Shown in pieces: positions 7,022 through 57,693 of a DNA stretch of 64,000 bases. Position 1 is the stretch's first letter. The number at the start of each line of letters is the position of its first letter. Position numbers and translations under genes: made by a program. The stretch is from an uncultured Acidobacteriota bacterium (lineage in GTDB: Bacteria; Acidobacteriota; Thermoanaerobaculia; Gp7-AA8). The stretch lies in assembly GCA_937870635.1 (NCBI GenBank), contig CALMZP010000046.1, positions 20,832 through 84,831 of the forward strand. The letters are read 5' to 3'. The notes beneath the pieces are model-generated. The model saw only the letters and a program-made list of their open reading frames with translations, did not search any database and had not been told where the DNA came from.

Positions 7022-7089
7022 CCGGTTAACGGTTAACGGTTAACGACTCACGGCACGAGCGTTAACCGTTAACCGTTAACCGTTAACCG
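7022..7089. repeat. Tandem-heptamer hairpin, unit GGTTAAC (3 + 4 copies)
   Basis: ccGGTTAACGGTTAACGGTTAACg, a 14-nt loop, then cGTTAACCGTTAACCGTTAACCGTTAACCg. Lies in the atpG-atpD gap. Confidence 0.95.
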
Positions 7090-7104
7090 AGGAAGAAGAG
7101 ACTC

Positions 7105-8562
7105 ATGGCAGACAAGAAAGATCACAAAGTCGGGAAGGTCATCCAGATCATCGGTCCGGCGCTCGACATCGAGTTCGACGAAGGCCACCTTCCGGCCATC
7201 TACAACGCCATCCGGATCACCGACAACGGGGAGTTCGGCAAGGTTCCCATCGACGTCGTCGCCGAAGTGGCGAACCACATCGGCGAGAACCAGGTGCGCT
7301 GCATCGCCATGAAGCCGACCGACGGAATGGTCCGCGGCATGAAGGCGATCGACACCGGCGCGCCAATCTCCGTTCCCGTCGGGCGCGAGACCCTCGGCCG
7401 CATCCTCAACGTTCTCGGCGAACCCGTCGACGAGCGCGGCCCCGTCAACGCCAAGGAAACCTGGTCGATCCACCGCGAGCCACCCACGTTCGAAGAGCAG
7501 TCCTCGGACGTCGAGATGTTCGAGACCGGCATCAAGGTCATCGACCTTCTCGAGCCTTACACCAAGGGCGGCAAGACCGGCCTGTTCGGCGGCGCCGGCG
7601 TCGGCAAGACCGTTCTCATCCTCGAGCTCATCACGAACGTCGCCAAGCAGCACGGCGGCTTCTCGGTCTTCGCCGGCGTCGGCGAACGCACCCGCGAAGG
7701 AAACGACCTCTATCTCGAGTTCGAAGAGACCGGCGTCATCACGCCCGGCGATCCTTCGAAGTCGAAAGCTGCTCTCATCTATGGACAGATGACCGAGCCG
7801 CCCGGCGCGCGCCTGCGCGTCGGCCTCACTGGCCTGACGGTCGCCGAATACTTCCGCGACTCCGAGGGCCAGGACGTGCTGCTCTTCATCGACAACATCT
7901 TCCGCTTCACGCAGGCCGGATCGGAGGTGTCGGCACTTCTCGGACGCATGCCGTCCGCCGTCGGATACCAGCCGAACCTGGCGACGGAGATGGGCGAGCT
8001 TCAGGAGCGCATCACGTCGACCAAAAAGGGATCGATCACCTCGGTCCAGGCCATTTACGTTCCGGCGGACGATCTCACCGATCCCGCGCCGGCGACGGCC
8101 TTCGCTCACCTCGACGCGACGACGGTTTTGTCGCGGCAGATCGCCGAGCTGGGGATCTATCCCGCCGTCGATCCGCTCGCGTCGACTTCGAAGATTCTCG
8201 ACCCGCGCATCATCGGCGACGAGCACTACAACACTGCGCGTGCCGTGCAGGCCGTTCTTCAGAAGTACAAGGACCTGCAGGACATCATCGCCATTCTGGG
8301 CATCGACGAGCTGTCGGAAGAAGACAAGGTCATCGTGGCCCGGGCCCGCAAGATTCAGCGCTTCCTGTCGCAGCCGTTCCACGTGGCGGAGCAGTTCACC
8401 GGCATCAAGGGCCGCTATGTGAAGATCGCCGACACGATCAAAGGCTTCCGCGAGATCGTCGAAGGGAAGCACGACGACATTCCCGAGCAGGCCTTCCTGC
8501 TGCAGGGAACGATCGAAGACGTCATCGAGCGCGCGGAGAAGATGAAGCGCGAGGCCGCGTAA
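7105..8562 (+). CDS. atpD: F-type ATP synthase subunit beta
   Basis: 485 aa. Walker [10 protein letters not shown], and a [10 protein letters not shown] (DELSEED-type) motif. Confidence 0.97.
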
Positions 8563-8572
8563 GAGGACCGGA

Positions 8573-8989
8573 ATGGCCGATCTCCCCACCAAGATCAATC
8601 TCACGATCGTCACGCGCGAGCGCAAGATCATCGACGTCGAAGTCGACGAGGTGGTGCTGCCCGGCGTGGACGGTGAGATCGGCATCCTTCCTGGTCACAC
8701 GCCTCTCCTGGCGACGCTGCGGATCGGGCCGATGCGTTATCGCGTAGGCAGCACGGTCGAGCGTCTCGTTCTGGCGTGGGGCTTCGCGGAAGTGCTGCCG
8801 GATCGCGTGATCGTCCTGGCCGAGAGAGGTGTCCTCCCCGGCGAGATCGACCCGGTGGCGGCGGAGGAAGATCGCCGCCGCGCGGAGCGCGAGCTCGCCG
8901 ATCTTTCGTCGCACGATCCGGAGTTCGCCATCGTGGAGGCGCGGCTCGAGGAGTCGATCGCCATGATCTCCGTGCAGCGCGGACATTGA
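8573..8989 (+). CDS. atpC: F-type ATP synthase subunit epsilon
   Basis: 138 aa and last gene of the cluster. N-terminal beta-sandwich pattern (VVLPGVDGEIGILPGHTPLL) and a helical C-terminus. Confidence 0.9.
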   Translation: MADLPTKINLTIVTRERKIIDVEVDEVVLPGVDGEIGILPGHTPLLATLRIGPMRYRVGSTVERLVLAWGFAEVLPDRVIVLAERGVLPGEIDPVAAEEDRRRAERELADLSSHDPEFAIVEARLEESIAMISVQRGH

Positions 8990-55273: not shown

Positions 55274-56242
55274 TCAGCCCGCCAGGCGCCCCACGTGGTG
55301 CCTCAACAGGCCGAGGAGGGTGTACTCCGACGTGAGGCGGCTCTGACGCTCCTGCTCGCCCTGGAAGAGGTTGGCCATCGTGCCTGCCCGTTCCTCGTAC
55401 CAGCTGGCGCTCACTTCGCCGTGGGCACGCTTTTCCTCGAGGACCGCCAGGATGTGCTCGCGGTCGATGATCTCCGGATGGTGATTCGCCCCGAAGATGC
55501 GGGGGATGCCCGACCCGGGGTCCGACGCGATTTCGATCATCGTCAGGACGCGCCTGCTCTCCGATTCGAACGCGAGCGGCATGAACGAAGCCGAATCGTC
55601 CGCGACCAGGTCGAAAAGACGGTTGTCGAGAACCCGGAAATGACGGCGATCGGGGAGTCGTTCGGCGAACTTCGCAAACCACGGATGCTCCGCGGCTTCG
55701 TCGCTGAGGAAATTGGTGGGCATGCCGGTGCTCTTCGACTGCCGCATTTCCGGGTGGGCCGCACCGGACCACCGGCAGAGCAGCCCGAACGAGTGGCAGA
55801 TCGCCAGCAGAGCTGACGATTCGTCGGCGGCGATCGAATCGAACAGGTTGAACAGCGGCGACTCCCAGTCGGCGCTCTCCCGAATGCCTTGAGCCCAGAA
55901 TTGCTCGCCGTCGTTCTCACGGGGATCGAGGTGACCTGGTCCGCCCGTGCCGACGTAGAGCCGGAAGCGGCCGTTCGGCGCCGGCGGGATCTCGTGCCGT
56001 CGCCGCACGTCGAAGGAAATGGCCCGGATCACCTTCCCGCGCGACGCCAGTCGACCGCGAGCTTCCTCGGCCGCCTCGAGGATCGCGTGCACGATGGCGT
56101 CGTGGCCTACGTTCGGCCACGAGTGGTTCATGTCGAGGATGGCCACATCCAGCCGGGCCGGATCGGCCGGGGGGAGCGCTCCGCCGTCGAGACGTACGTA
56201 CTCGAAGAAGTCGTGCTTCTCGTGGATGTCGCGGCGCCTCAT
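55274..56242 (-). CDS. Class-I glutamine-amidotransferase-like (GATase1 / peptidase-C26-like) protein
   Basis: 322 aa. Nucleophile elbow LAICHSFGLL and a late GANHHPEI (His-x-Glu). Starts 3 nt after the GCS2 stop. Confidence 0.65.
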   Translation of the reverse strand: MRRRDIHEKHDFFEYVRLDGGALPPADPARLDVAILDMNHSWPNVGHDAIVHAILEAAEEARGRLASRGKVIRAISFDVRRRHEIPPAPNGRFRLYVGTGGPGHLDPRENDGEQFWAQGIRESADWESPLFNLFDSIAADESSALLAICHSFGLLCRWSGAAHPEMRQSKSTGMPTNFLSDEAAEHPWFAKFAERLPDRRHFRVLDNRLFDLVADDSASFMPLAFESESRRVLTMIEIASDPGSGIPRIFGANHHPEIIDREHILAVLEEKRAHGEVSASWYEERAGTMANLFQGEQERQSRLTSEYTLLGLLRHHVGRLAG

Positions 56243-56245
56243 CGC

Positions 56246-57358
56246 TTAGAACTTCAGTCCGTGCTCGGTCTCATTGATGATGAAGTCGACCACATCGCGA
56301 AGATCGTGCCGCTCTTCGTAAACGGCGAGCTGCCGGTCGGCGCCGGGACGATGTTTCACGATCTCACGGGCGTAGTAAACCTCGTTCCGCGAGCCGAGCT
56401 CGTCCACCACGTCGTCGACGAACTCGAGCAACTCGTCGAGCAGGGCCTCGTACGGAACTTCCATACCCTTCCCGAAGTCGATCAGTCTGGCATCCACCCC
56501 AAACCGCGCCGCCCGTGCTTTGTTCTCGTTGATCATCGCCCGCGGGTAGGTCCGCCAGCTCATGTTTCTGCTGTAGAGCTTCCACAGCTTTTTCGTGACC
56601 GCCTGGAAAAGCGCGGCGATGCAGATCGTCTCGTCGATCCGGAGCGGCACGTCGCAGATGCGGTACTCGAGAGTGGGGAAGAATGGATGCGGGCGAACGT
56701 CCCACCAGATCTTCTTCGCGTTGTCGATGCAGTTGGTCTTGATGAGGAGCTTCACGTGTTCGTCGAATTCGCTCCACGACCGGAAGTAGTCCGGCAGGCC
56801 CGTGCGAGGAAAGCGCTCGAACACTTTGGCGCGGTAACTCTTCCACCCCGTGTTGTGCGCGCACCAGAAAGGCGAATTCACCGACAGGGCAAAGATGTGC
56901 GGCAGGAAGTACCGCGCCGCGTTCATGATCTGGATGCGCGTCTCGTCATCTTCGATCGCGACGTGCACGTGCAGGCCGAAAATGAGGTTCGCGCGCGCCA
57001 CCATCTGCAGGTCGTAAACGATCTGATCGTAACGGGCCGCCGCGGTGATGGGGACCGTTGACCAGTGCGAAATCGGATGCGTGCCGGCCGCGGCGATTCG
57101 AAGGCTGCTCTCCCGAGCGAGTTTGCAGATCTCGTAGCGGAGACGTGTGACCTCGCGCCGCGCGTGAGCGACGTCGCGGCAGATCGGTGTGCCGACCTCG
57201 ATGACCGCGTCGTGCATCTCCCGCTTGATCTCGTCCTTCAGCCGCTTTTCACCCTCCGCGAACATCTCCTGGATGTGCGACTTGAGCTCGCGGGTATATG
57301 GCTCGATGACCTGAAACTCCTCTTCGATGCCGAGAGTGAAGGAGGGCTGAACTGTCAT
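56246..57358 (-). CDS. GCS2/YbdK-family carboxylate-amine ligase (glutamate-cysteine-ligase family 2)
   Basis: 370 aa. FTLGIEEEFQV, IEVGTPIC, GTHP, FGLHVHVAI, SVNSPFW, WWDVRPHP..PTLEYRICD. Confidence 0.88.
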   Translation of the reverse strand: MTVQPSFTLGIEEEFQVIEPYTRELKSHIQEMFAEGEKRLKDEIKREMHDAVIEVGTPICRDVAHARREVTRLRYEICKLARESSLRIAAAGTHPISHWSTVPITAAARYDQIVYDLQMVARANLIFGLHVHVAIEDDETRIQIMNAARYFLPHIFALSVNSPFWCAHNTGWKSYRAKVFERFPRTGLPDYFRSWSEFDEHVKLLIKTNCIDNAKKIWWDVRPHPFFPTLEYRICDVPLRIDETICIAALFQAVTKKLWKLYSRNMSWRTYPRAMINENKARAARFGVDARLIDFGKGMEVPYEALLDELLEFVDDVVDELGSRNEVYYAREIVKHRPGADRQLAVYEERHDLRDVVDFIINETEHGLKF

Positions 57359-57454
57359 GTCGTAAGGCGAAGTGTAATGGAGCGGTCGGCATGACAGGCA
57401 TCAGGACCCTTCTCCCCCAGCGAAGACTGGGCGAGAGGTTGCGCCCCGAAGGCC

Positions 57455-57693
57455 GGATGAGGGGGCGTTGAGAGTTTTGAGGGAAGAGGCTCGAGATTTG
57501 AGGTTTGAGAGTTGAGGTTTCTAGGTTTGAGACGGGAATGGGGATGGCGATTTGTGAATGTTCAATGTTGAATGTTGAATGTTGAATGGTGAGTGGTGAA
57601 ACTGAATTCAACACTCACCATTCAACATTGACCATTCACCATTCCCGTTTCTCTTCAGTCGAAATCTTCTCTCCCAACTCGCGCCCCTCATCC
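57455..57693. repeat. About 240-nt imperfect hairpin containing tandem heptamers (GAATGTT, TGAGGTT) around an apex near 57603
   Basis: GAATGGTGAGTG (57584-57595) pairs with CACTCACCATTC (57612-57623). Outer pairs are GGATGAGGGGGCG / CGCCCCTCATCC. Lies 3' of the ATP-grasp gene on the minus strand. Confidence 0.85.

Follow-up and report, generated by a model that had tools for sequence, protein, structure and literature searches.

Heptamer hairpins in the window and in related DNA

The DNA analyzed here (the window) is a 64,000-nt stretch of contig CALMZP010000046.1 from an uncultured Acidobacteriota bacterium (assembly GCA_937870635.1). It has a GC content of 63.5%, and its genes, assigned by GC3-based choice of open reading frames (ORFs) together with Pfam, include atpG, atpD, a sigma-54 response regulator (RR) gene, topA, and a gene for EcsC. 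Eight intergenic spacers of the window hold hairpins that are palindromic heptanucleotide microsatellites, i.e., two tandem arrays of one 7-nt (sometimes 8- to 10-nt) unit in inverted orientation, and each of the eight is flanked by a co-directional gene pair (Table 1). Gene calls and Pfam reveal no transposase or integrase genes among the window genes, and the window returned zero Rfam matches at gathering score and zero hits in a tRNA search.

A sequence-only reading of the window had listed these eight loci as an array, a loop, and the complementary array, and Tandem Repeats Finder (TRF) and an inverted-repeat search recovered all of them as described. They are also the longest local inverted repeats in the window, with RNA minimum free energies ranging from -23 to -117 kcal/mol. 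The 7-nt periodicity claimed for all eight stands at seven loci, where a 7-bp unit is repeated at least three times, and does not stand at 27236, where the period is 9 to 10 nt. As reported, all of them begin within about 25 nt of the upstream stop codon (14, 0, 2, 13, 2, 1, 6, and 21 nt in locus order), and within the window a unit is common to two loci only, 11179 (11178 in Table 1) and 43323. The gene upstream of the 17357 locus (17355 in Table 1) is a 69-amino-acid (aa) PspC-domain ORF (Pfam, E value of 3.8e-22), and not the ligase gene.

Using our own detector for period-7 arrays, we find 11 such arrays in the window, all within the eight loci, and five strict inverted pairs, compared to a mean of 0.34 arrays and 0.00 inverted pairs in 100 dinucleotide-preserving shuffles of the window, which excludes chance. 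The same detector finds no arrays of period 8 to 14 in the window, while TRF gives a period-9 pair (27237/27286).

Table 1. The eight tandem-repeat hairpins of the window (positions are those of the window; dG in kcal/mol)
Hairpin (strand)	Arrays	Units and loop	Stem	dG	Context
7022..7089 (+)	7023-7045 / 7060-7089	(CGGTTAA)3.3, 14-nt loop, (CGTTAAC)4.3	23-bp perfect stem at 7023	-42.6	atpG stop ends 7008; atpD start 7105; Shine-Dalgarno motif GAGGAAG touches stem base
11178..11290 (+)	11178-11226 / 11253-11290	(GGACCTT/GGGCCTT)6.9, loop, (AAGGTCC/AGGGTCC)5.3; TRF unit GACCTTG		-76.5 on + strand, -54.4 on - strand	first base is the final base of the sigma-54 RR stop TAG; topA 44 nt downstream
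17355..17437 (-)	17355-17389 / 17412-17436	(GGATTTT)5, loop with small GC hairpin, (AAAATCC)3.6	27-bp perfect stem at 17364		2 nt past stop of PspC-domain ORF (17439-17648, -); 22 nt ahead of hydrolase start 17334
27235..27312 (-)	27237-27272 / 27286-27310	(CACAGAG + 2-3 nt)3.8 / (CTCTGTG + 2 nt)2.8; period 9-10			13 nt past UvrA-like stop 27326; 40 nt ahead of OPT transporter start
42209..42316 (+)	42210-42247 / 42288-42311	(GAAGGAT)5.4, 40-nt loop, (CTTCATC)3.4	24-bp perfect stem at 42211		2 nt past BamE-like stop; small Zn-ribbon gene and EcsC downstream
43323..43356 (+)	43323-43341 / 43341-43356	(GGACCTT)2.7 / (AAGGTCC)2.3; unit family as at 11178	15 bp		1 nt past EcsC stop; 100-aa ORF downstream
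46311..46371 (-)	46311-46337 / 46344-46371	(GGTGCTT/AGTGCTG)4 / (AGCACCA)4		-48.7 on gene strand, -38.3 on other strand	6 nt past inositol monophosphatase (IMPase) stop 46378; 17 nt ahead of methylpurine glycosylase (MPG) start 46293
57455..57693 (-)	core 57555-57600 / 57606-57644; outer array 57493-57531	composite, imperfect, 239 nt; core (GAATGTT)6.6 pairs with (ATTCACC/ATTCAAC)5.6; outer array (GAGGTTT)			21 nt past stop 57715 of hypothetical gene; 96 nt ahead of GCS2 start

The window was compared with three sets of related DNA (numbered with the prefix L): 80 atpG-centered loci spanning Acidobacteriota; 80 metagenome loci, 76 of which have a TopA 75 to 84% identical and the synteny atpA-G-D-C-x-RR-topA...hydrolase-pspC-ligase; and 14 contigs of close relatives, for which we quote the identity of the EcsC protein to that of the window. 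An exact look-up of the window AtpG yielded no recorded protein. The best AtpG match among species-representative genomes is 74% identical, the nearest genomes being Acidobacteriota metagenome-assembled genomes (MAGs), and EcsC proteins at 94 to 98% identity come from soil metagenomes and one MAG labeled Thermoanaerobaculia; the window belongs to a Thermoanaerobaculia-like soil acidobacterium. In the 1.66 Mb of related DNA scanned, period-7 arrays have an inverted partner (a reverse-complement array at most 160 nt away) in 85 of 115 cases and period-8 arrays in 17 of 23, compared to none of 106 period-5 or 84 period-6 arrays; the class is thus specific to periods 7 and 8. These arrays collapse into 68 hairpins, or 60 once near-identical orthologues are removed, with a median arm of 29 nt, a median loop of 18 nt, and arms of 50% GC within genomes of 63% GC. 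In Vicinamibacterales, Pyrinomonadaceae, and Terriglobales, too, the junctions atpA|atpG and atpG|atpD bear hairpins, which are built from unrelated units. Window loci and scan together bear out the proposal of a distinct class with 7-nt periodicity that sits flush with stop codons.

Three observations on individual contigs are added here. On a Blastocatellales contig (L076, 5846-6108), near-identical (AGTAGAA)n/(CTTTCTA)n hairpins stand on both sides of a tRNA gene. In L033, the complementary arrays (GGTGACT)n (1197-1229) and (AGTCACC)n (1591-1620) lie about 360 nt apart, one of them abutting the atpG stop and its counterpart 22 nt ahead of the next start, and the loop may hold invading DNA. 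Six short metagenome contigs (L163, L165-L167, L171, and L172) start or stop within or right beside heptamer hairpins, so the repeats seem to break de Bruijn graph assemblies, which fits multicopy unit families. In practical terms, the hairpins would break short-read assemblies and may be taken for terminators.

Insertion into operon junctions

The hairpins fill the untranslated spacer of two co-directional cistrons, flush with the stop codon and just ahead of the next ribosome-binding site (RBS). Among 49 hairpins with a classifiable spacer, 47 are co-directional, one is convergent, and one is divergent, against background spacers numbering 775, 103, and 106, respectively. Ten further hairpins were scored as genic by a crude GC3-based caller, and the seven that could be placed on a tblastn gene map fall into known co-directional spacers. 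The stop codon is a median of 6 nt away and the next start a median of 23 nt; 35 hairpins lie closer to the stop and 11 closer to the start (P = 5e-4).

Furthermore, we observe that the hairpins are clean insertions into junctions that measure 0 to 24 nt in close relatives. At atpG|atpD, about 33 of 45 relatives have only 3 to 24 nt (stop, GGAG, ATG), whereas about 12 carry a hairpin of 59 to 129 nt between stop and RBS, built from the units GGTTAAC, CCGTTGG, GTTGTTC, GTTGTCT, GATGAGA, and AACGATG or from the 8-mers GGTTGTCA and GTTCAGCT; L093 has a GC hairpin without periodicity there. On a tree of AtpD and TopA, hairpin presence is patchy in two of four clades and absent in the other two. 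Alignment to empty sites places the insertion precisely at atpA|atpG in L096 and between TAG and GTCC for the window hairpin at 11179, a junction that is empty (TAG|GTCC) in L145 and occupied by a related unit, AGGCCTT, in L098. Another hairpin separates TAG and ATG in L140, where relatives have 0 to 1 nt, and in L152 one lies inside an ATGA overlap, which is duplicated. Likewise, the IMPase|MPG junction measures 2 nt in L168 (EcsC, 96%) versus 84 nt in the window, and the spacer orthologous to that of the 17355 hairpin is empty in L085 and holds different units in L139 and L152.

As a separate feature of the RR|topA spacer, a conserved CG-alternating palindrome, ACGCGCGCGCATGATGCGCGCGCGAGGAATTCCGG, followed by GTTTGGGGCGTTCCGCA right before the start codon, lies about 30 to 110 nt upstream of topA in L085-L156 (e.g., L100, 9930-10001), of which the window (11290-11330) retains only the GGAATATCG... 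part. This element might be a supercoiling-sensitive (Z-DNA-prone) promoter region.

Turnover and concerted evolution of the arms

Comparing orthologous spacers for copy-number variation, as the sequence-only reading had advised, we observe that close relatives are unlike each other in both copy number and unit. After the EcsC stop, the window has (GGACCTT)2.7; L169-L172 (94%) carry four plus about seven units of GGACCTT/GGGCCTT; L161/L162 and L165-L167 (97 to 98%) carry (CGACCTT)/(AAGGTCG); and the hairpin is absent in L168 (96%) and L173/L174 (90%). From GGACCTT/AAGGTCC to CGACCTT/AAGGTCG, most units of both arms differ by a G-C to C-G change. Downstream of the BamE-like stop, the hairpin of the window is (GATGAAG)n, and L165 (98%), whose downstream flank closely matches that of the window, has (GATGAAC)n with a 3' arm of (GTTCATC)n. 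At the same position, L161 has a degenerate 5' array, a mix of both variants, and an extra repeat element in the loop, and L173/L174 have no hairpin. Between relatives whose neighboring EcsC is 90 to 98% identical, hairpins are thus frequently gained, lost, and resized and switch units, and their two arms evolve in concert.

With respect to the gene models at this locus, the window ORF at 42401-43321 (306 aa; region 42345-43321) is probably two genes, with the EcsC start then near 42665; homologues have 194 to 219 aa, and a separate Zn-ribbon gene (PF09723) of 92 to 102 aa precedes them in L161-L174.

Where the units come from

The sequence-only reading had proposed a local generating mechanism, and this gains support from units that match the native stop/RBS junction of hairpin-free relatives. 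An exact 7-mer match to the orthologous empty site is found in 8 of 33 cases (3.1 expected). The AGGTCC of the window arm at 11179 matches the native TAG|GTCC, the 3' arm (GACAACA)2(GAGAACA)2 of L141 matches the native GGAGACAACATG of relatives, and arms in L096, L105, and L141 resemble the RBS region GAGAAC.

The view that the loci are not copies of one element likewise agrees with the data, as the units differ between loci, but to say that the units arose independently goes too far, since unit families recur at non-orthologous loci. GATGAAG, GTTGTCG, GTTCTCA, AGAGATC, GATGAGA, and GGACCTT all do so with unrelated flanks and loops, and the window hairpin at 11178 and L169 both hold GGGCCTTGGACCCT. 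Pairs of hairpins on the same contig share 6-mers in 10 of 51 cases, compared to 1.8% of other pairs. As the units are not independent, part of the explanation must be common seeds (RBS and stop motifs), ectopic conversion, or dispersal.

DNA or RNA level, and the polarity of the arms

Of the 47 hairpins whose direction of transcription is known, 22 fold more stably on the coding strand and 20 on the antisense strand (Wilcoxon P = 0.78), and mismatches in the mRNA are A.C as often as G.U. This equality is read as upkeep of the complementarity at the DNA level, for example by template switching between the arms, and is not decisive with stems this long; the complementarity looks DNA-driven. Selection for register-tolerant stems, which had been suggested as the alternative to slippage, finds no support in these counts, and selection on RNA folding as the main force was set aside after the negative test for coding-strand G.U asymmetry.

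The arms have a clear polarity. In the 5' arm, which is the same one whichever strand is read, G outnumbers C in 48 hairpins and C outnumbers G in 10 (P = 4.5e-7), and in a scan of the same spacers the split is 22 versus 4 for periodic inverted repeats and 25 versus 20 for nonperiodic perfect ones, which rules out polarity as a general trait of all intergenic hairpins. Eight of 10 unpaired arrays beside a stop are richer in G than in C on the sense strand, and start-adjacent ones have C>G. This G-rich-first order may reflect selection against a C-rich, Rho-attracting array exposed after the stop codon: an exposed C-rich array would attract Rho and cause polarity, whereas a C-rich arm that comes second and is paired at once would not.

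Terminator-like features

The absence of classical terminators from the window was noted correctly, as terminator-like sites over 1 to 60 kb number 41 against about 39 expected, made up of 15, 19, and 7 hairpin-plus-T sites (14.2, 11.9, and 13.2 expected). The one GC hairpin that had been singled out as a terminator, at 15591-15626, exists, but its T-run lies 9 nt from the stem, and it is not a canonical terminator. A T-run (five or more T within the 10 nt that follow) is present after 6 of 47 heptamer hairpins, and none of the eight window loci has a U-tract. The description of the hairpins as terminator-like 3' untranslated ends does not hold either, since all eight, and at least 47 of 49 in the larger set, lie between co-directional genes, several of them in operon-internal junctions of 0 to 24 nt. 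With no room for a promoter and with essential ATP synthase genes downstream, the hairpins would be transcribed through rather than act as efficient terminators. Intrinsic terminators resemble them in having a stem-loop directly 3' of a stop codon, whereas the hairpins described here lack the U-tract, have 15- to 45-bp stems of about 50% GC, and are in several cases operon-internal.

Comparison with known repeats

To our knowledge, heptanucleotide repeats have been noted since 2007 and short tandemly repeated repetitive (STRR) sequences since 1990, with no accepted mechanism or function. The sequence-only reading did not recognize a described repeat class, yet the architecture is known from cyanobacterial STRR, from Xanthomonas GGGAATC pairs, and from Geobacter paired repeats, and by analogy the hairpins may be regarded as the acidobacterial counterpart of these systems. 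Heptanucleotide repeats are the most overrepresented long microsatellites in many bacteria, with polymerase slippage as a proposed cause, according to Mrazek 2007 as relayed in PMC4692102 and PMC4679880.

In cyanobacteria, STRR with a 7-bp unit fold into hairpins in the hupS-hupL spacer and at other places, and stability, coupling, or termination roles have been proposed for them (PMC2670836). They share with our hairpins the tandem 7-bp repeats in intergenic or intercistronic spacers and the ability to fold into a hairpin, but their hosts are filamentous cyanobacteria rather than Acidobacteriota of 63% GC, and here about three-fourths of the arrays are in inverted pairs, with many units per genome. 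In Xanthomonas, intergenic GGGAATC arrays form about 70 to 75 convergent inverted pairs per genome with the G-rich strand first; they are transcribed, and species differ in their length (Rehm et al. 2015; PMC4692102). Convergent inverted pairing of intergenic heptamer arrays and G-first polarity are common to both, whereas Xanthomonas has one genome-wide G-tract unit with G-quadruplex potential and the units here are diverse and mostly without GGG. A Xanthomonas-type G-quadruplex (four or more G-tracts, each with three or more G) was accordingly rejected, since only the GGGCCTT variants at 11179 contain GGG. Geobacter metallireducens has paired tandem 7- to 9-nt repeats of classes 1 to 3, e.g., between proB and proA (PMC2700814). 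These are likewise pairs of three to five tandem repeats on opposite strands at variable distance, with several unit classes per genome, one of which (GTTGCTYN) resembles the GTTGTC units here. In contrast, they comprise three or four families only and are annotated as putative global-regulator or IHF/HU sites, and their positions relative to stop codons were not analyzed there.

Repetitive extragenic palindromic (REP) sequences and bacterial interspersed mosaic elements (BIMEs) of enterobacteria are also transcribed extragenic palindromes, intercistronic or 3', often near stop codons and patchy between strains. REPs differ in being conserved 20- to 40-nt imperfect palindromes without internal periodicity that are mobilized by RAYT. 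A REP/REPIN identity was rejected because units differ between loci and the window has no transposase-like gene. As to dispersal of one unit in many copies through the genome, which is a trait of STRR, the window has one shared unit pair, and across window and relatives' contigs families recur at non-orthologous loci. MITEs (miniature inverted-repeat transposable elements) were rejected because four clean insertion sites show no duplication, the 9-bp duplication at a fifth (L152 2619) is required by the ATGA overlap anyway, and loops differ within families; a target-site duplication at one of five sites, so explained, argues against MITE transposition. Integron attC sites were rejected as well, since the hairpin ends do not fit the RYYYAAC/GTTRRRY core sites, the genes are syntenic housekeeping genes, and the window has no integrase. 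We found no report of heptamer repeats in Acidobacteria in the literature, and the insertion into operon junctions, the concerted evolution of two arms, the G-first polarity, and the adjacency to stop codons appear to be new.

Interpretation

Our favored reading, which we hold with roughly even confidence, is that the hairpins are heptamer microsatellites built and kept self-complementary at the DNA level, transcribed through, and tolerated in operon spacers with modest effect. The seed would be seven bases of the native stop/RBS junction, or the duplicate of an array already present, which replication slippage would lengthen by 7 nt at a time. Intramolecular template switching would then produce the inverted arm and correct it again and again, in the manner of quasipalindrome correction, and because of this correction a unit change would spread through both arms in concerted evolution. 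In the mRNA, the 15- to 45-bp stem-loops would draw the stop codon close to the RBS that follows, which may explain why they are tolerated exactly at those junctions. Their effect is probably modest and nonessential: the intercistronic stem-loop might hold back 3'-exonucleases, be cut by RNase III, or couple translation as a hairpin that the ribosome opens when it terminates.

Several points weigh against this reading. Slippage and template switching are deduced from patterns only, and the reading does not account for the step being 7 nt. Nor does local seeding by itself account for the recurrence of unit families, which dispersal or ectopic conversion would fit equally well. The co-directional bias draws on partly orthologous, nonindependent loci and has a chi-square of about 8.6 against all spacers. 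At two loci of L096, the coding strand has an identical G.U wobble per unit, which hints at an RNA-level constraint there. Finally, the same junctions (atpA|atpG, atpG|atpD, RR|topA, and pspC|hydrolase) bear hairpins across several Acidobacteriota orders and classes, which could mean functional selection and not mere tolerance.

Such selection is the core of one competing explanation, which to us is conceivable although rather doubtful, namely, that these are selected intercistronic mRNA stem-loops that tune relative cistron expression as an exonuclease barrier, an RNase III site, or through coupling or ribosome stalling. Intercistronic sites of phage T7 are RNase III processing sites, and the perfect stems of 23 to 27 bp are RNase III-sized. 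REP sequences within 15 nt of stop codons reportedly stall ribosomes in a mechanism that involves tmRNA (work attributed to Liang, Rudd, and Deutscher, 2015), and the hairpins are flush with the stop (median, 6 nt) and have a Shine-Dalgarno motif at or directly past the stem base. The recurrence of unrelated-unit hairpins at the same junctions, the presence of some hairpin after the RR stop in nearly every relative, the L096 wobble, and the stability and coupling roles proposed for cyanobacteria (PMC2670836) point the same way. The explanation is weakened by the coding strand having no overall folding advantage (22 versus 20), by presence and absence that vary among relatives with EcsC at 90 to 98% identity (at atpG|atpD only about one-fourth of relatives have a hairpin), and by a search that found no conserved sequence or loop feature. 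The DNA-level symmetry without RNA strand bias and the Geobacter precedent (PMC2700814) would suit protein-binding sites or cruciforms (IHF, HU, or an unknown regulator), an option that we consider very improbable, because dozens of unrelated units cannot have one sequence-specific binder in common and because divergent, promoter-bearing spacers are avoided (1 of 49).

Nonautonomous mobile hairpins (REP/REPIN, MITE, or IS200/IS605 PATE-like) whose arms happen to be heptamer arrays, with several families per genome, would account for the clean insertions and empty sites, for unit families with unrelated flanks at non-orthologous loci (including GGGCCTTGGACCCT in window 11178 and L169), for the 9-bp duplication in L152, and for the contigs that break at hairpins. 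Nevertheless, we think them unlikely, as the four other clean sites lack a target duplication, loops and termini vary within a family, at least seven units occur in 64 kb without a transposase or integrase, copy number varies gradually, and some units equal the native junction. Equally improbable in our view are Rho-independent terminators or attenuators that lack a U-tract, as the sequence-only reading implied. These would agree with the strong stems directly past stop codons, with canonical terminators at only chance level in the window, and with the conserved promoter-like region past the RR|topA hairpin, which may therefore close a transcription unit; on the other hand, hairpins occur inside the ATP synthase operon and in 0- to 2-nt or overlapping junctions with no promoter room for essential genes, only 1 of 49 is in a convergent spacer (about 5 expected), and a T-run follows only 6 of 47. 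More tentatively than our favored reading of tolerated microsatellites, we consider that a general, uncharacterized mutational process may build palindromic 7-nt microsatellites de novo at operon stop/RBS junctions in several phyla, by structure-templated slippage and arm-to-arm copying, with an inherent polarity in which synthesis of the G-rich arm comes first. If so, the hairpins would reflect how the replisome or RNA polymerase/Rho works and would not be regulatory elements, and the polarity and the 7-nt step would be experimentally tractable signatures.

This acidobacterial lineage offers a dense comparative series, with the same junction in dozens of relatives and with empty sites. The hairpin patterns, among them a position that the terminating ribosome can reach, limit in concrete and testable ways how the 7-nt step may have arisen, and they also concern the way in which polycistronic mRNAs tolerate, or make use of, long hairpins.

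Other dispersed repeats in the window

Two further repeat families were observed in the window. A REP-like family (family A) consists of GTGGAGCGCGGGCGA-NN-TCGCCCGC palindromes, often in inverted doublets (2233-2255, 8987-9065, 24195-24215, 34381-34557, and 59462-59526), and sits in other spacers, convergent ones included, that have no heptamer hairpins. A second dispersed family, ATCCCGAGCGAAGCGAGGGATCTCCGGAAGCACCGGCAGGAT, forms MITE-like inverted pairs (20326-20443, 20590-20620, 24223-24321, and 52675-52715), and a copy related to it lies in the loop region of an orthologous hairpin spacer in L161 (9538-9716).

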